A stretch of DNA of 62,323 bases, counting the filler, from Asterionella formosa (taxonomy: Eukaryota), in assembly GCA_002256025.1 (NCBI GenBank). It is 10 parts of 10 records of this genome, joined end to end, with 100 filler letters (N's around TTAATTAATTAA, not from the genome) between each part and the next. Parts side by side here need not be neighbours in the genome. Positions count along the whole stretch, not along the records: positions 56,194 to 62,323 come from NKIB01012811.1; 9 more parts are not named here. One strand, 5' to 3'. Position 1 is the first letter of the stretch, and every line of letters begins with the position of its first letter. Below, piece after piece: positions 53,003 through 62,323 of the stretch. The position numbers were made by a program, and so were the translations under genes. The notes below the pieces were generated by a model, which did no database searches, was not told where the DNA came from, and was given only the letters and a program-made list of their open reading frames with translations.

Positions 53003-54977
53003 TTAAACTTCCGCGGCTCGGCTCAAGAATCTCCACAGGTCATCACGTCCCAATTTTGTCTCGGCAGAAGTTAAAATGACTGGAGCATTTCCAACCTTGC
53101 ATTGCTTCATTGTATCCCGAACCTTTTGCATCACTTCCTGTGTCACTTTCCCGGCATTTCCTTTGCTGGCACCCTTTACATTCTTGTCAGCCTTGGTGAG
53201 GACAACAACATATGTCACTCTCCGAGGCAATACTTCGCCCACAAGCTTCATAATCTTTGAATCTTCCTCTGTCGGTCCGTGCCTCGCATCCACCAAATGA
53301 AAAAGGACACGTAGTGTTTTGCGTGTTGTGATGTACTGTGACATGAACTCGGACCAGTCTCGACGAATGTGATCAGGGACCTTGGCAAACCCAAAACCAG
53401 GTAAGTCGACAATATTGAAGGAATCTGGATCCTTTTCTCCGACAATGACATCGCCATATTTGATTTCCCTTTCTCGATCTGGTTTGTCATTAACCGCAAA
53501 AAAGTTGAATTGTTGTGTCTTTCCAGGCGTCTTGCTGGTATAAGCGAGGGACTTACGGTTTGTGACCTTCGCGGAAATGGTTAGTGCCATTTTGCATTTG
53601 GAAGAAATTGTCTGGCGTCAGCCTCAATTCACCGACCCTTATGCACACAACACGCTATGGAGAACGTACCATATTGACAAGACTCGACTTGCCGACATTG
53701 GATCGACCAATGAATGCTGCTTCACCTCGATCCGCGTCAGGACACCCCTCCATATGTACAGCTCCAGTTAGAAACACAACTCTCCTTACCAAAGAGTTAC
53801 TCAAGGCTTCATATGTTCGATCATCGTTGAGGGCTGGAAAGGTGGTCATGGCATTTAAAACGGCATATACCAAGTTGCACGGCAGGTCGACATCAACTCC
53901 TTCACAAGGAACGACGGAACCATCTCTTCTCCCTGATTCACATTGAGCGGCACCTTGAATGATGCGGGTCCAAGGCAAATTCAATTGTTCGGCAGTGATG
54001 CCAGCACTTCGGACAATGGGTCCCAATTCAGCCATGCAGGCACAGGCCTTGACGGCCAATGATGGTTCGCCTTCGTAGAAATGGCGAGAAGCGATGGATG
54101 CCAAGGAAAGAGCTCTGTGTGTAATACGGGCCTTGTTTTCGTCATTGTCCATTGGAGTTCCCTATCAAGCAAAATAAAAGATATGTTAGCAGATACCAAC
54201 AACCACGCACCCAACGAGCAACCGAAGATTTACCTGTAAAGGAAGAGACAATTCATCTTCTAGCACTTCCAATGCATCTGTCACGTTATGAACCCTCAAC
54301 AAACCCCGGATGATGGCAGCACTCTCCATAGGCAACATGCCAATCCGATGATTGGTGTGTCGTTCATCCATGGCCCGCCTTGCCAAATTATGCTCTTGCA
54401 AATGAAGGGCAGCCACAGCCAATCTTGCCAAGAGGCTGCCTCTGTATCCATATGCAAATCTTTCATCCACTTCTTCTAACAGAAAGCGTGCAATCGCCCT
54501 GATGTCATGTATATCATGAAGGTTTTGAGCACGTTTGATAGCCTTGAGGACATCATCGGCAGTTGACGTTTCCTTGGAAAGGCTTGGGATTCTGGTCGAA
54601 TGCAAGTCAAACCTTCCCTCATTAGGAGCTGCCAAAACTTTGGCACGGTCTTCGAAATTATGTCTACGGTGATTTTTGTTCTTTCTTTGATCTTTTCTCT
54701 CTCGTTCTAGCGCTTTGCGTTCAGGGCGAGTGAGTTTTCGTTCATTATTGCTATCATCATCATCATCGTTGTCGTCGTCTCTACCTTGAAGTTCCTCTAT
54801 GATGAGATTAGACGCTGCATTCGAAAATAGAGTAGTACCAGTAACTGGGATAAGGCAAGAATAAAGTCGTGACGGTGTCACGAATTGCGGACCATGAAAG
54901 GCTTGAGTATGAATGATACTGGAAAAAATCACTCCAATTGTAGTAGCCATTGACGATAAGGATAATGAAGGCTTCAT
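53003..54977 (-). CDS. engB: EngB/YihA/YsxC-family GTPase with a long N-terminal extension, probably plastid-targeted; exons 54977-54234, 54161-53670, 53566-53003
   Basis: G1 GRSNVGKSS, SKTPGKT, G3 DLPG, LVDARH, G4 TKAD, G5 TSA; in-frame GT-AG introns; leader ...IIHTQAF-HGP. Confidence 0.9.
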
Positions 54978-55508
54978 AGCTTGCCTTCGTGTTTCGAATG
55001 ATAGGCTGCTGCTGCTGCTCCTGCTCGTTCTCCTCGCCCGAAGCGTCACCTTTTGATCTCAACTTTATCGACAAAAGAGAACAAGGCTGCCATCACTTCA
55101 TCTGATTTCATCAGAAAAAACATCTCATGATGTTGGGAAGTAAAGCATGTACCAGTATTATAGTCTAGGTCTCTGCATGCCGGTATTTGTCTGTAACATG
55201 ATACAGCAGACCATAGGTCTCCTCATTTGATTGGCTGATGGGGATCGACAATTTGGGCCAGTGATGGTGTATGTAGGAGCCATCATCATAAACCGGTGGT
55301 CTAGTCAGTCGTAAGGAGTAGTAAGCATGTGCCATTCGAAGTACATATGTAGGGTAGCTACCAGGTATCACGCGTTAGATGACCATGCCATGATACACCC
55401 AAAACACCATGAGTCTACGGTAGTCTACCAGAACCTGGTAGATTATACCACATATCCAATCGTAGAGTTCACAAAACAGAGTACCTGGTACCTGGTGCTC
55501 CGTACATA

Positions 55509-55598
55509 CCGTATACTTCATTGTCCTGGACCCCCCAATGTACACTGCCGTGACTGAATTTGACTGATTTTACTTAAGGGGGGCCCAGGACAATGAAG
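55509..55598 (+). mobile_element. Isolated pogo-like terminus (TA|CCGTA...) with an internal 21-bp inverted repeat
   Basis: cttcattgtcctggacccccc (55516-55536) vs ggggggcccaggacaatgaag (55578-55598); same CCGTA start and inner inverted copy as the element at 1681. Confidence 0.55.
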
Positions 55599-55673: not shown

Positions 55674-55955
55674 GGCCGTTGCTAACCGTTGACCCAAACC
55701 AAAACCCAAAAACTTTTTTTTTGGATTGGTTTTGGTTTTGGTCAACTGACGAAAAAACGATGCTATCGGTTTTTGGGAAGTCCTAAATGCTGTCAACCAC
55801 CCATCTACTGTGACGTAGGATGACAAAACCATTATAAAAAAAGTAAAATATTTCTATTAGACTAGTTATATAAATGAAATATTATGATTCCCATTTGGGA
55901 ATTAGTTAGTTTTTCCCGCAATTTGAGCGATGTTGCTGTCTTGTCATTGAACTAC
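55674..55955 (+). mobile_element. Harbinger-type MITE fragment, inverted copy of 50175-50462
   Basis: tta|ggccgttgctaaccgttgacccaaacc...; ~280-bp reverse-complement match. Confidence 0.8.
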
Positions 55956-56002
55956 CTGGTACCTGGTACCTGGTACCTGGTACCGGTACCATGGTACCTG
56001 GT
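55953..56002. repeat. (TACCTGG)n heptamer tract
   Basis: tacctggtacctggtacctggtacctggtaccggtaccatggtacctggt. Confidence 0.9.
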
Positions 56003-56211
56003 AGTACACAACGGTAAATGTACCAACAATCCTTTGCTGGCCTCATCCTGTGGTGCGATCCACAAAAAATCTTTTCCTTGACACGAAATATACNNNNNNN
56101 NNNNNNNNNNNNNNNNNNNNNNNNNNNNNNNNNNNNNTTAATTAATTAANNNNNNNNNNNNNNNNNNNNNNNNNNNNNNNNNNNNNNNNNNNNACGTATT
56201 CATTAACAGCA

Positions 56212-57071
56212 TCAAAACACTTTTGACTTGTTGCTTGACTTGGTCAATGCATCCAACTGGTTCAAGCTCCTTCGTTTTGGAGCAGGATACTTTTCGGTCG
56301 CGACATCTTGTCTCTTGATCTCACGAGCACTCCACCATCCCTTCCCATACCAATGACAAAGCTGGGTGTTTTTTGGAATTTCTTCGAGAGTGATGAACTC
56401 CAATCCTCCCACCTTACCATTTCGGAGGCCAAAGTATTGAAATGTGGATCTGTACACAGCAAACGATGAGATTCGGTCGGGACAGTAATGGTTCCCTACC
56501 TACAAAACACCGAACTTACGCGAATATATAAAAATATATGCAATTATTCTTACCTCATATTCTGTCTCTCGCTGGGGCCTGGACAAGCAGCATACTGTAA
56601 AATATCTCCGGTCCCTTTGGGATTCAAGACTCCGTTATAATTGTCCGTCTTCAAGGTTCTTGTATATGGAATAAGGTTACGACCTGTCTTTCGATTGGGT
56701 GGATAATATGATATGCTACGATCTTCCTTGTTCGAAGTTGGACATTTGCCTCGGTAGCCCCAAAAGACCATGCGATAATCCTTGGGTAACGCCCAGTTGG
56801 CAACTAGAGTCTTTCCCGCAAATGGGTGGGACACGACCTTTACAGCAGCATCACCAGACTTTAAGTGAGCCTCGCAGTATGGAATTGGAATTGGCTCCCC
56901 TTCGCGAGATTCAACCATGGAAAGGCAACGAAAACCGGAACGTTTGTGAGCCCAGCATTGTATGCATTCGTTTGCTCGAGCGCGTCCTTGAGTGCTGATT
57001 CGAGGAATTGACTTTTTCTTAATGGTTCCCTTTTCAGTTCTTACTTGTTTATTTGCAGGGTTTTTACACAT
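56212..57071 (-). CDS. Divergent SET-domain-like protein with an N-terminal Cys/His module; exons 57071-56554 and 56449-56212; start uncertain
   Basis: Intron 56553-56450 (GTAAG...CAG) keeps frame; GKTLVA, LQYAACP, LEFITLEEIPKNTQLCHWYGKGWW resembles the SET C-terminal ELxxxYG motif; C..SG.RC...YCEAH. Confidence 0.65.
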
Positions 57072-57275
57072 GCTTGGATAAAATTAGGAACTAGTGATGC
57101 TGACTGGAGGAAGACTTGTTGTTGAAAGGAATTACAGCATCCAATACATGAAGATGCAATTTGTAGTGTTGTTCTGTGTCTATGCGTTATGATCTTTTTT
57201 TTAAACCAATGCTTGATGTACTCCCCCCATTCATGCATGATGTGCCCGGTGTATCGTAGTTGCAACCAAACTTCT

Positions 57276-60200
57276 TATTCACACCCTGAATTTTAGGTCA
57301 AACCGACACCTAAAAATTGGTCAGTACAAAATGTACACACGAGAATGACTTCTACCTCGGGCAGACCACACCCATCCATACAACCCTAATACAGAAAGCA
57401 CTGATATTATGCTTCACCTCGTGAAATTTCAATATATAGCTAATATAGTACCGGTATGTCTACTTCAATAATTGGATAGCATTTATATGAATTTTTAAGA
57501 TAATTAATTCACCTAAACCTCTTGACCAACTCCATGTTCAAAGGCATTGCTTGTCAGAAATCTGATTGGTACTGAAGAAATGCGGCTTTGCACCAACACG
57601 AACCTTGTTAGGCATGATTCTGAGATAGGCAGGCCACTTTGTGCGCTCTAGATGCCGGCGTCGGTCCTTTGGAGTAAATGTAGGAACTCCCAATGAACTA
57701 GCCACAATATCAAATGCTTTCCTACAATGCAAATCTGACATCTCCTGATGTAGCAACCCTTTTTCATGTGCAGCCAAATCTAACCTCCTCATGAGAAGCA
57801 TGAATTCCTCTAGCCTTCGCCTCCCATCTGTCAAAAAATCAACATCCATGGGCTTCAAAAACTTCATGGCACACTGCCCTGACACTGTATCCTTTGTGTG
57901 CCATAGTTTGTATGCAACAAGGAGGCCGCATTTTAGGAATTTCCAGTTGGGAGGAATAACCCGTCTAATCTTTCCCTTGTGAATCCAAATTTTTTGTTCA
58001 CCCATCAATTCAGTATGATCTGTACCATTGCCAGTAGCTGACCATGGCATATTGTTTGCTGTTGTTGGTATCCTTTGATCTAGCTCCTCAACAAACTTTT
58101 TTCGACTTTCTTCCAAAATGGACTTCATTCTTGTCTCTGATAATGTCCCACCCATGGTATGGTCATCCAACATTTTTTCGACACCTTCTAACACTCCTGG
58201 CTGTATTTCTGAAACAATGGTCTTGATCTGCTCAATTGCAGAAAGCTGGACAACATGAGGCGGAACTCCAGTCAGCTTCATAACACACTTCTGTGCAATG
58301 CTATCATTTTCCCAAGGATACACTACTCTGGCTGACAGAATCCCGCAATTCAATAAATTCTTGTTTCCTGAAAATAGGCGACATTGCAAGTGGTGAATTG
58401 GTGTGGAATTCATTTGCAGCATCAAAATGGTGAAGCATTGATGCTATTCCAAACCGTAGTGTCTTTCTGATGCACACTAAATCCTGTAGTTCTCCAAAAC
58501 ATGCTTTCAACATGGTAGAAACCTTTTGATTCAAATCCATCTGTTTTTTTCTCACAATAGCCACTGCCTCGGGAACACCAACAGTACTATGATAAAAGAA
58601 ATCCGGTGCAGAAGCGCCAAACTTAGCAGATAGTACATTCATACCACTCAAAATTCGACCTACATACTGGTCACCAGCACGCCGCTCATACAGCATATAA
58701 ACATCATGTACACCTCCCAAAGTCCACCCACCCCGGTTATTGACTGAAACACTTGAAGGAGCTGCAGTTGTACCACTAGAAGCATATGTACCTGCACCTT
58801 TCCAAATGGAATGTACACCTAGTATGTCATTAGGTTCATAGCCAAGTTCAAGTAGCTCATCCTTGTGCTTTTCTAGCACACAAAGTAGGATAGCCCCAAA
58901 TCGTTCCTCTTGCTTGGGACCTGGGAATAGCATACCATTCCCATCCTGGAAGAGCTTTGGGAAGCACAACAGGTACTCTGTAACAGCAGTCACACAGCAC
59001 ACATGATAATTGTCAGGGTTTGTGTAAATATGGCGGGGATGCCAGTTCCTTGATCCTGCAGGGTCATTCTTAACATGTGAAAATGAAATTCCAAATGCAT
59101 CAGCCCTCCACATAAGATGCTTCAAGCACAAACAGGTATTTACTCCCCTACACATCAAATTCCAAGTCAATGACATGAAAGCACGACCAAAAATACCCTC
59201 ATGTGACCTCTCCTCAAGTAGCCATATCATCGATTTTTCATAAACCTCGAAAGTAACTTCTTGTTTGCCCATTTCCACAGAACCAAGGCCTTCCTGTGCA
59301 GCCATTGACACAACGCGTACAACTCCTTCCATGTACTTGTCCACATTCTCTGAAAAATCGTCACTTGCCCTGAACTTGTGGCGCTTGAACAGATTATTCA
59401 AGATTGATCGCTTGTTCATATAAACTTTTCCCTTCAAAGGCACACCATTATTCTTCAAATTCGAGCTCAAGTATGTTGTGTAGTGCTTATAGACCATACC
59501 ACTAAAATCAAAGGGTGCAGGACTATTCTCCTTGTCCAACCATTCCCTAATAACAACTCTTGCAGCAGCTTCCCTCTTCTTCTGTGAAATTCCTTGGTCG
59601 TCTGTGATTGCTACATGAATCTGGCCAGATAATATTGGGTTGATCAAACTCATCTGTCTATCCCTTGTTTCCTTGTCAGATTCATTCTTGTGCCCAAGTA
59701 ACAACCACATTATTAGTTTCACAACTTCATTCCGATTATTGTCTCTGGTTGATTGTGCTCTATTTAGCTTTGGACATTCATCAGGTAACATCTTCTTCTT
59801 CGTTTCTTCCACCAAGCGATCATGCTCACTTTGTTTTCTTGTTGTTGTTGTAGTGCCAGTTTCATATCCTACTTGCTGCTCAAACCAATCTCCTCCTCCC
59901 ACAAAATATTCGAAGTCATCCTTGCCTTCAAATGATCTTCCATATTGCATGAAGCATCCAAGACAAGTCAAAAGGCTTGAATTTGAATTCGTCTCTCCGC
60001 AAAGGGGATGTATCGCTCCATCACAGGAAACACATCGGTGGCTGATTGCAGCATGAGGAAATTCGCCACTTTCTTTACGCATCATCTTACAGGCATTGCC
60101 TAGGCAGCATGGAGCGAAGTTGGGCGTAGAGTCCATTCTTTAATCAACAATCTGAAAGCTTTGAAAGAGTAACGATAATTTCTGATCTTATATTTCAATC

Positions 60201-60540
60201 AAAAAATTGAATCATCAGTACTCTATATATACAGAATCATAGCACCTACTAAAGTGCGGCTCATGGTGACTTCATGACACTCCCAGCACCTACGGGAGGC
60301 GATCCATCAACTATTTTACTCTGCGCAAATGTATCGAAAGCAGCGAGTCATTGTTAGGTTTTTCCGCACCTAAAATTCCAAGAACTGAAAAGGAAGTTTA
60401 AGTTGTCTGTAGCCTTGTACCGGGGTTCGTCTGTAGGACGAGAAAATATTCTCAATCAGCCATTTCCTGAATTTTAGGTGCGGAATAACCTAAAATGACC
60501 CTCAGGGGCAGTTAATTTAACCTAAAATTCCCCACCTTCT
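57276..60540 (-). mobile_element. Crypton (tyrosine-recombinase DNA transposon), 3265 bp, bounded by CTTCT direct repeats (57271-57275, 60536-60540)
   Basis: YR ORF; subterminal inverted arms gaattttaggt (57288-57298) and acctaaaattc (60520-60530); empty target site visible at 60762-60780. Confidence 0.88.
57538..60136 (-). pseudogene. Crypton tyrosine recombinase with an N-terminal Cys-rich finger; one ancestral ORF split by a frameshift near 58325
   Basis: WNLMCR (R), HVKND (K), HSIWKG (HxxR with R->W), RGGW, DVY (Y), GDQYVGR; second frame continues TGVPPHV...PPNWKF...YKLWH. Confidence 0.88.
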
Positions 60541-60931
60541 GTGCCCCCATCAAGTGCAAGCTCCGATGGTTATTCGCCTGTTTTAATATACCGGTAGCCG
60601 GGTTCACCAGCAGAGTAGCCGCCCGTGGCTTGTAGTAAGTTGGAAATTTAGGATCAGAAAATATTTGTTTTGCATACATAAACATAGAGTCGTTTTATTC
60701 GATGAAATGCTTTATGTTCTCCCCCCACTCATGCATTATGTGCCCAGTGTATCGTAGTTGTAACCAAACTTCTGTGCCCCTATCAAGCGCAAGCTCCGAT
60801 GGTAATTCTCCTGCTTTAATATAGCCGGGTGCACCAGCAGAGTAGCCGCCAGTGGCTTGTATTATGTTGGAAATTTAGGATCACAAAATATTTGTTTTGC
60901 ATACATATACTTAGAGTCGTTTTATTCGATG
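60536..60931 (+). repeat. ~230-bp tandem duplication of the Crypton target region
   Basis: 60536-60702 matches 60769-60931; the intervening 60705-60773 matches 57207-57275 on the far side of the Crypton. Confidence 0.9.
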
Positions 60932-62323
60932 TTCATTTCGGCATCAGTGAATGTGTATGAATATACCAGTCATCAACAATGAATCATCTCTTAGCAACAC
61001 ATGCATGCCATTTACGCTCAGCCACAACCTTGCACTCGATCACCTCTCTCACCATGAGGAATACCTCCATTTGTCATTGTTTGATCCTCATCATCTAAGC
61101 CTTGCTATATGATCAACCAGCATTGTCTCCTTCCTGATTGGAAGGTTGTGGGAAGAAGAAGTCGAAATCAAAATTGGAAGTGGTTAAGTGAGACCATTGA
61201 TCAGAGTGTCTTGGAAGGGAGGATTAATTGATTTTTTGTGTCGACAATAGAATGCCTTTGTCGATCAAGGATGCATGGATGAAATTTCTGATGCATGTTA
61301 TGGGAGATGCATGATCTTTGTTATTGTGTCTTGGAATAGGAATATGTATCCATTCAAACTTATATTCTGCACTTGAGTGTCTGAAGACACATATATACCA
61401 CTACACTTCTGTTCATGAACTTCTTTGGAGGAGAGAAAAGAAGCTGGATGACTGTATCTCAAACACAATGTATTTCGGTCTTCATACTTTCATACGTTGA
61501 TATACTTTAGCAAAGTGCAAGAAGGTTGACTCAGGCATGCATTGTACTGCTACACCACACGTGTTTTGTAATGGAGCTATATCATCAAACTTAGCTAGTA
61601 CTCTTTCCACTTACTACTGTGTGTTATTGATTATATTCTAGCATGTATTATCTTCCCTAGTTTTGAGTTTCATCATACTTCTAATGGTCCATTCCTCCAC
61701 CTTAGACCAAATGTCCTGTTAATTTCGCTTAGTAGCTAATAGCAAGTCAATTGCTAGTGCTTATGGTCACACCAATGCAAAAAATCGGTAAATACTCAAA
61801 GGAAATAAGTGCCCTCACAGATCCATCGACTCATTCTATTGGTCCAAATGTTTACAATGCTCTAAGTGGTGATGGATCTGTGAGATTACAGCAAGGAACA
61901 ATGAAAAGCGACAGTCGGTTAAGGCCATTATCAAGGTAAAACAACATGTATTTTTGCATCATAATTATTTCAGTAGAAGGGTTAGGGTTATTGTTTGTAC
62001 TAGGTCTGCATGAGCCTGCCCGATATTCTCAAACTTTGCACTTAGCCATTTTATAAAATTATTGCGAACAGAATGGTGTAGGTGAACCTGACCTCGTTTT
62101 ATTTTTTTGCGCATTTTTTGTAGCATCATGTCCCGATTGGAATCTTTGCTCAGGACCCCCTTTTTTCGTTGACCCTTCACTAAACACTGACCAATGAGAC
62201 ATAACACGAAGGATTTGACGCCAGAACAGCGACAATGCATTGTCGATTGCTTGCTTCATGACCTCAAAAGGGAGGCTGATGAGACCGTTGGCATGGATGG
62301 CCAGCTCGCCATAAATCCGGGTG

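Follow-up and report, generated by a model that had tools for sequence, protein, structure and literature searches.

The system closest to the one described here is CryptonS, a type of DNA transposon from oomycetes and Phaeodactylum tricornutum for which short terminal direct repeats, defined ends and a circle model have already been published (PMC3212892). The terminal direct repeat of CryptonS is 5 or 6 bp long and mostly TATGG, although not always, and most families in the 2011 table have defined termini of 5-7 bp (PMC3212892, supplement 1), which runs against the premise of a first-pass annotation of our locus that the ends of Cryptons are hard to define. A further system, CryptonF-1_cRei of Chlamydomonas reinhardtii, is active in mutation-accumulation lines, carries at its termini a 5-bp motif to which its target is nearly identical (CACCG / CAYCG) and excises cleanly, leaving the target only (PMC9977147). 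As for the intermediate of transposition, a circle has been proposed for Cryptons since 2003 and is still hypothesised in a 2026 preprint which shows circles of Starships (10.64898/2026.09.21.753150). Here we analyse a window of 62,323 nucleotides (the whole stretch of DNA under study, consisting of Asterionella formosa contigs in series), of which positions 56194-62323 are a single contig, G000:C12811, that carries a Crypton. We put at roughly 85% the probability that this element is a decayed, formerly autonomous CryptonS-type DNA transposon, located on one of two homologous chromosomes, and that conservative site-specific recombination, carried out by the family's own Cre/Xer-like tyrosine recombinase, is how its members move.

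The A. formosa family is a further member of the known CryptonS type, and all CryptonS features that we examined fit: a length of about 3 kb, a single tyrosine recombinase, long in its C-terminal region and lacking GCR1_C, a 5-bp terminal direct repeat without terminal inverted repeats, gene-less derivatives and a stramenopile host (PMC3212892). The recombinase is 27-32% identical to nine of nine tested proteins from Phytophthora, Aphanomyces and Achlya. What sets the family apart is its Cys-rich N-terminus and its core, CTTCT, unlike the listed CryptonS termini TATGG, TTACTG, TAATG and CTGTAAG, together with several features that the available text of PMC3212892 does not describe for CryptonS, namely repeated TTTTAGG motifs, a strict A before the core, an insertion hotspot and a head-to-tail junction. 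The 5-bp terminal motif with its near-identical target and the clean excision are shared with CryptonF-1_cRei, but that element belongs to the CryptonF group, in which GCR1_C is present (PMC3212892), and no circle or junction is described for it in the available text of PMC9977147. The Starship Hephaestus is likewise a eukaryotic tyrosine-recombinase element with short flanking microhomology and a joined-end form; it differs in being a giant cargo element with a recombinase of another family, and its circle was shown by reads and by integration of a synthetic circle (10.64898/2026.09.21.753150). Our literature search found no published account of the A. formosa family, of Crypton head-to-tail dimers, of a shown Crypton circle or of such a hotspot, though Goodwin 2003 and Repbase, which lay outside the search, may hold such data.

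The boundaries of the element are common to its copies elsewhere in the genome. A genome search with the whole region gave 49 matches whose alignments begin near the left boundary and end at the right boundary, and searches with the ends only gave 40 places each, these being the 40 that were scored out of 107 and 87 candidates. Over 102 loci examined by BLAST, 24 of 28 distinct left ends with unrelated outer flanks read flank-CTTCT-TATT(C/G)ACA, the remaining four being altered or truncated, while 25 of 30 distinct right ends with unrelated flanks read CA(C/G)-CTTCT-flank, the remaining five being off by one base; with more loci added, the core tallies came to 33/37 and 26/31, respectively. 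Because the same placement recurs beside unrelated flanks in most distinct genomic ends, the boundary CTTCT is not a product of chance. The first-pass annotation had read this pentamer, with its flanks, at both boundaries and in a neighbouring duplicate, and had delimited the element with a 5-bp junction repeat, all within one contig. Our re-reading of the sequence agrees on each of these points: about 30 left and 30 right genomic ends stop at the identical bases, and no copy among those compared reaches beyond 57271 or 60540. Of eight copies retaining both ends, the window copy included, seven read CTTCT...CTTCT and one CTTTT...CTTCT. Several of them are gene-less derivatives of 1.7-1.8 kb which have only the first 130 and the last 235 bp in common with the window copy. 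A CTTCG left end (C13926) and a CTTCG right end (C2921) were considered as a single insertion, but the overlap is only 79%, and variants of the core accordingly played no part in locating the cuts.

The element interrupts a unit (unit A) that is followed by a tandem duplicate (unit B). Laid side by side, its flanks match unit B over 68 bp at 91% and 169 bp at 89% (about 230 bp aligned). The duplicate had been taken for the element's own empty target site 230 bp away; its CTTCT is indeed uninterrupted, but at 89-91% identity it is a paralogue rather than the element's own allele. The true empty allele lies on a separate contig, C2285, which is 97% identical over 56194-57275, has a single CTTCT without footprint and, after the core, stays 96% identical up to 60689 before entering other repeated sequence. 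The Crypton is thus a member of a dispersed multicopy family with a precise empty site. In run X5, a joint 57270->60536 with five shared letters is found at depth 410, the nearby flank depth being 830-930; together, C2285 and this joint fit a heterozygous insertion, in which C2285 may be either pre-insertion or post-excision. The left junction is present in runs X1 and X7. In X1, an independent lake run, one contig extends over 60512-60909 with a single difference, so that the tandem duplication is genuine and a misassembly, named by the first-pass annotation as a possible refutation, is ruled out. Another dispersed repeat family, with about 25 genomic matches and raised depth to 61200, starts at about 60820; its start is duplicated at about 60595-60704, and the tandem duplication takes in its first part.

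The content of the element is one split gene, at 57538-60136. Its two overlapping minus-strand frames, of 610 and 301 aa, are in relatives one protein of 875-909 aa (67% identical), and the 4-bp duplication which separates them is missing from most depth in four runs as well as from other genomic copies. Across an alignment of 32 proteins the catalytic columns R330, K356, H442, R445, W471 and Y480 are conserved. The window copy retains all of these except R445, which has become W (codon 58802-58804), while two other copies, L002 and L003, keep all six; with a catalytic Arg changed to Trp and one frameshift, the window copy is dead as judged from its sequence. The top Foldseek matches of the predicted structure (pLDDT 78.5) are Ndc10 (E 2.9e-4), XerH (8e-4) and Cre (2.3e-3). 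Both this tyrosine-recombinase fold and the oomycete and diatom relatives uphold the identification as a Crypton; the relatives with names are Fragilaria proteins (52-71%) and many proteins of Phytophthora, Aphanomyces, Achlya and Lagenidium. These relatives, and the presence of the sequence in freshwater runs, point to a freshwater diatom as the probable host. In a comparison of the window's C-terminal frame with nine oomycete relatives, which are unnamed proteins and not confirmed Repbase CryptonS, six gave weak matches (E 2e-12 to 6e-4) and the other three weaker ones or none. Pfam detects neither a reverse transcriptase nor a DDE transposase within the element, and GCR1_C, a CryptonF feature, has no match in the open reading frames (ORFs) of the window, the 32 aligned proteins or nine full-length relatives; in an atlas search, GCR1_C clusters were seen only as lower-ranked look-alikes. 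In the RNA run X13 the depth over the element follows, from its ends to its middle, the pattern seen in the DNA runs, and this coverage is for that reason no evidence of expression. Two relatives of the recombinase, P0117 and P0145, have a C-terminal OTU-like peptidase domain; the 2011 Crypton paper mentions a C48 peptidase (PMC3212892).

We propose that the donor site would be formed by the right and left ends joined across one CTTCT, and that this junction would recombine with a genomic (A)CTTCT through the family's own tyrosine recombinase. One core would then be left at each end, which would make the 5-bp repeat a crossover core rather than a target-site duplication, and reversal of the reaction would restore the target site exactly. 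Strand exchange would stay within the 5 bp, the TTTTAGG motifs may serve as recombinase or accessory binding sites, a hotspot would be favoured since it supplies a mirrored half-site, an assembled head-to-tail junction would be a chromosomal dimer from the same reaction, and a free circle would be the intermediate. Two CTTCT at a filled site and one at an empty site would equally be seen if the repeat were an ordinary target-site duplication, produced by staggered cuts at a sequence-specific target through cut-and-paste or copy-paste, with no joined-end donor. Such an origin is extremely unlikely given that the sole enzyme is a tyrosine recombinase, that terminal inverted repeats are absent, that the two ends are found joined with one core in common and that active Cryptons excise cleanly (PMC9977147).

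The place of strand exchange can be approached through the bases next to the core. Left ends have A in front of the core in 30 of 34 cases and C in four (one of these being the junction), compared with a background of A at 36 of 171 CTTCT sites. At right ends this position is C in 28/31, T in 3/31 and A in none, a count that passes over ends whose second base after the core is A. Immediately after the core, left ends have T in 30/31, and right ends vary. If one of these two bases were part of the exchanged stretch and resolution were unbiased, about half of the ends would be expected to show the target's base, and the chance of finding none in 31 would be about 2e-8. Because the element's own bases persist on either side of the core, strand exchange appears to be confined to the 5-bp core, or else repair to be strongly biased. 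The targets are A-CTTCT; under confinement to the 5 bp, the A before the target core would represent a recognition preference.

Around the core, the motif TTAGG/CCTAA occurs seven times within 190 bp of both ends: as one inverted pair on the left, as two on the right, which together make up a 25-nt inverted repeat, and as a single motif 11 bp from the right core. Terminal inverted repeats were looked for and not found, the inverted match between the ends being limited to 15 nt in subterminal position. Standard tyrosine-recombinase sites have arms of 11-13 bp around a spacer of 6-8 bp (PMC3212892), and the first-pass annotation had pictured inverted arms placed asymmetrically around a crossover core in the joined ends. 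The two 11-bp arms in question sit 5 and 12 bp from the core and 22 bp apart, and a lox-like symmetry was rejected: no 14-bp symmetry is centred on the core of the joined ends, the best register reaching 8/14 off-centre. In view of this spacing, the lack of core-centred symmetry and the sevenfold occurrence of the same motif, they are not lox-like core arms; rather, they are two of the seven repeated subterminal motifs and are better read as candidate accessory binding sites. Cre-lox, Xer-dif and Tn916/Tn1549-type integrase systems have the same catalytic fold and residue set, with crossover in a short core. The A. formosa donor junction, however, is without symmetric 11-13 bp arms around the core, and its layout seems nearer to that of integrases which use separate arm-type sites.

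The right subterminal inverted repeat could be given another role, that of a hairpin substrate for folded single-strand action as in integron cassettes, with one strand exchanged and the rest left to replication. While the right end folds far better than shuffles, with z of -6.0 and -5.5 on the two strands, this folding is equal on both strands; and while the repeat region is less variable than the loop (2.9% vs 5.2%), none of 31 copies shows a compensatory pair, and the most frequent subfamily change disrupts one of the pairs. The equal folding and the lack of compensatory changes leave a strand-specific role of the hairpin unsupported. One-strand exchange could explain the unswapped flanking bases as well as a rising Crypton copy number, but the hairpin stops 36 bp short of the core, which does not lie inside it, and we regard this mechanism as very unlikely.

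Returning to exchange between duplex ends at the core, the joined-end junction itself is represented in the assembly. The sequence which the first-pass annotation had predicted for an excised circle, cccac-CTTCT-tattcac, has three exact matches (C6769, C7226 and C12225), with none for a control pattern. The prediction thus stands verbatim as far as the sequence is concerned, but not as to the circular form, since the right-end variant is confined to the junction contigs. All three contigs are of the gene-less subfamily, and the 504 bp of C12225 are identical within the other two, the only places where their right-end variant is found; the nearest flanked right end differs from it by at least 10 of about 340 bases (33 aligned). 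Since a free circle presupposes a flanked donor that shares this right end, the sequence evidence clearly favours a chromosomal head-to-tail dimer as the source. Such a dimer could arise from a circle integrating at a resident end or from end-to-end sister-chromatid recombination, with the same core chemistry in both cases. That the contigs derive instead from extrachromosomal circles, set free by a gene-less derivative in the course of active excision, and so would represent a sequenced Crypton intermediate, is rather unlikely. The junction does match the excision prediction letter for letter, with one core, and the contigs are short (504-816 bp) and without host flank, yet C7226 runs on into a second, left-end copy that breaks off at element position ~305, and the chromosomal donor that a circle needs has a right-end variant seen nowhere else in the assembly. 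Similarly, 8 of 78 metagenome loci of relatives (six distinct elements) assembled head to tail, but two of these cases are chromosomal arrays of non-identical tandem copies (97.9% and 99.3% identity), and circles as scarce as those of a Starship (36 junction vs 6,959 end reads; 10.64898/2026.09.21.753150) would probably be too rare to assemble. Distant relatives from metagenomes (L193:170-282; L164:149-320; L166:3330 and 6625; L201, L204) also have repeated inverted motifs near their ends, which in L193 are TAGG...CCTA pairs resembling those of the A. formosa family; L166 and L167 have a 21-bp direct repeat on their flanks.

About one fifth to one quarter of the sampled insertions lie at one site in another high-copy repeat, which accounts for 8 of 30 right ends and, by strict count, for 7 of 36 left ends (11 if variants are included). 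The site is situated some 40 bp in from the end of this other repeat, whose length is about 2.15 kb, and is present empty as 185 exact matches in the genome, which is expected to hold about 43,000 ACTTCT (scaled from 36 in the window) and contains GGTACTTCT 1,100 times; the excess at the hotspot has a p of 1.8e-7 with 500 host sites allowed. The cases are scattered across both end trees and include autonomous as well as gene-less copies, a spread that argues for repeated insertion, though some copies could be host-carried. Beyond the hotspot core, the next 14 bp agree with the reverse-complemented right-end arm at 8-10 of 14 positions, with TTTTAGG at the end in 7/8, compared with a background mean of 3.6 (80 sites, max 8) and a mean of 4.6 at other targets (22 sites, one-sided p 0.009). 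Conceivably, the hotspot is apparent only, with one or a few insertions multiplied by the host repeat as it transposed with a Crypton inside. Such carriage is compatible with a site so close to the end of a repeat of at least 185 copies, where the host end stays intact, and some copies are close tree neighbours (L078 with L080; L063 with L066). It is nonetheless distinctly unlikely to be the explanation, as the copies belong to the autonomous and several gene-less clades, are interleaved with non-hotspot copies in both end trees and sit in host variants that differ from case to case. The host repeat (G000 C57, C388 and C4620, that is L140, L141 and L138; at least 185 sites) begins RGCAATTCCCGCTCC and ends ...GTATTGCCTTCAG, has no long terminal inverted repeat, and its first 33 bp recur inverted about 200 bp inside the far end, a layout that we take, as a guess, to be Helentron-like. 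It was also compared with Replitrons (PMC10288648, in whose available text none are from diatoms) and was left unclassified.

Several observations weigh against the picture of a Cre/Xer-like enzyme exchanging strands within a 5-bp core at preferred targets. As regards the enzyme, the TM-scores of the fold matches are low (about 0.3 by query), Pfam integrase has no match in the window ORFs or in any of the 32 aligned proteins, and a PDB sequence search gave no match for the recombinase; because of the latter two results, the enzyme is identified by its fold and motifs. Examination of 13 long genomic copies revealed no intact autonomous one, and run X5 may be the assembly's own source rather than independent of it. 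As regards strand exchange, a 5-bp region falls short of the 6-8 bp that is customary for such enzymes, and biased mismatch repair or replicative resolution could yield the same flanking-base counts. At the hotspot, the strict excess among the 12 insertions at GGTACTTCT has a p of 0.04 under an assumed 30% share, and the mirror register was chosen after the hotspot was seen; moreover, the window's own target has a mirror score of only 4/14, so that a mirrored arm is not required and helps at most. Finally, none of 15 listed joints (of 19, from four runs) goes back 60540->57276 as a free circle would, which, coming from contigs only, is a weak test. The most far-reaching interpretation, in which the junction contigs would be a sequenced Crypton circle and the family would be built like an integrase system, a novelty among Cryptons, with exchange in a 5-bp core, TTTTAGG motifs as separate arm-type sites and insertion directed to the end of another transposon by the mirrored half-site there, is clearly improbable.

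An important aspect of this family is what it supplies from sequence alone: a donor junction, a precise empty allele, intact related recombinases such as P0001-P0003 (875-898 aa) and numerous targets for which the preference has been measured. Additionally, the gene-less derivatives suggest minimal cis ends of about 130 and 235 bp, the parts that they share. With these natural substrates the Crypton model is directly testable; reconstitution of transposition is not reported in the literature covered, which still treats the circle as a model. Among eukaryotic recombinases, one that has a 6-bp target and excises cleanly might find use as a tool, and the preference of a Crypton for another transposon's end would, if true, exemplify the targeting of harmless sites. 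Nothing known is overturned, and an active system already exists in Chlamydomonas; the value of the family lies in an unusually complete set of natural substrates rather than in a new system.

Table 1. Positions of the A. formosa CryptonS-type element, its parts and its target units, counted along the whole window.
Feature	Position	Strand	Basis or remark
CryptonS-type element	57276..60540	-	3265 bp including one core; boundaries common to copies; skip 57270->60536 in run X5
Left half of interrupted target unit A	57208..57270	+	91% to 60706-60773; part of the 97% match to C2285
Left crossover core CTTCT, A preferred before it	57271..57275	+	sequence; other genomic left ends
Left subterminal inverted motif pair GAATTTTAGGT, 9 bp, ACCTAAAAATT	57288..57318		sequence; candidate accessory binding site, putative function
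Recombinase C-terminal third, out of frame	57538..58443	-	63% to residues 636-882 of intact relative P0001
Recombinase ORF, N-terminal 610 aa	58304..60136	-	Cys-rich N-terminus, core-binding and catalytic domains; 32-protein alignment, fold matches, codons
4-bp small duplication causing the frameshift	58328..58334		missing in 6/6 other genomic copies spanning the site
Right subterminal inverted repeat	60347..60499		25-nt core arms 60354-60378 and 60469-60493, each a TAGGT-N8-ACCTA pair
Right terminal arm ACCTAAAATTCCCCAC, adjoining the core	60520..60535		conserved in right ends; mirrored by the hotspot target
Right crossover core CTTCT	60536..60540	+	sequence; other genomic right ends
Right half of interrupted unit A	60541..60705	+	89% to unit B; 60536-60689 96% to empty allele C2285
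Unit B, tandem paralogous duplicate, CTTCT uninterrupted at 60769-60773	60706..60931	+	X1 contig spans to 60909

Among the other copies, three with both ends present (L106, L146 and L147) are 3.2, 5.3 and 8.6 kb long, L106 having no long ORF; nested insertions or cargo are possible explanations. A sister family (L142 and L143, in G000 C7924 and C12877) is 77% identical; its left end keeps CTTCT, 3 bp nearer to the first motif, and its right end was not found. The window copy has many private insertions of 3-4 bp, at 57381, 57955, 58328, 58680, 58820 and 60457. Those inspected are small tandem duplications, and other copies carry different ones, which suggests from sequence comparison that micro-duplication may be a common mutational process in the A. 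formosa genome.

Elsewhere in the window, artificial N-TTAATTAATTAA-N linkers, placed about every 6.2 kb (e.g., 56094-56193), part contigs that are unrelated to each other. A probably spliced host gene of unknown family lies on the minus strand at 56212-57083, beginning about 200 bp from the left end of the element. Another spliced gene on the minus strand, at 53655-55058, has the P-loop GTPase motif GRSNVGKSS and is presumably EngB/YihA-like. Between 55516 and 56003 (55516-55598, 55688-55746 and 55955-56003) there are two short inverted-repeat pairs and a run of GTACCTG heptamers, widely recurrent in the genome.

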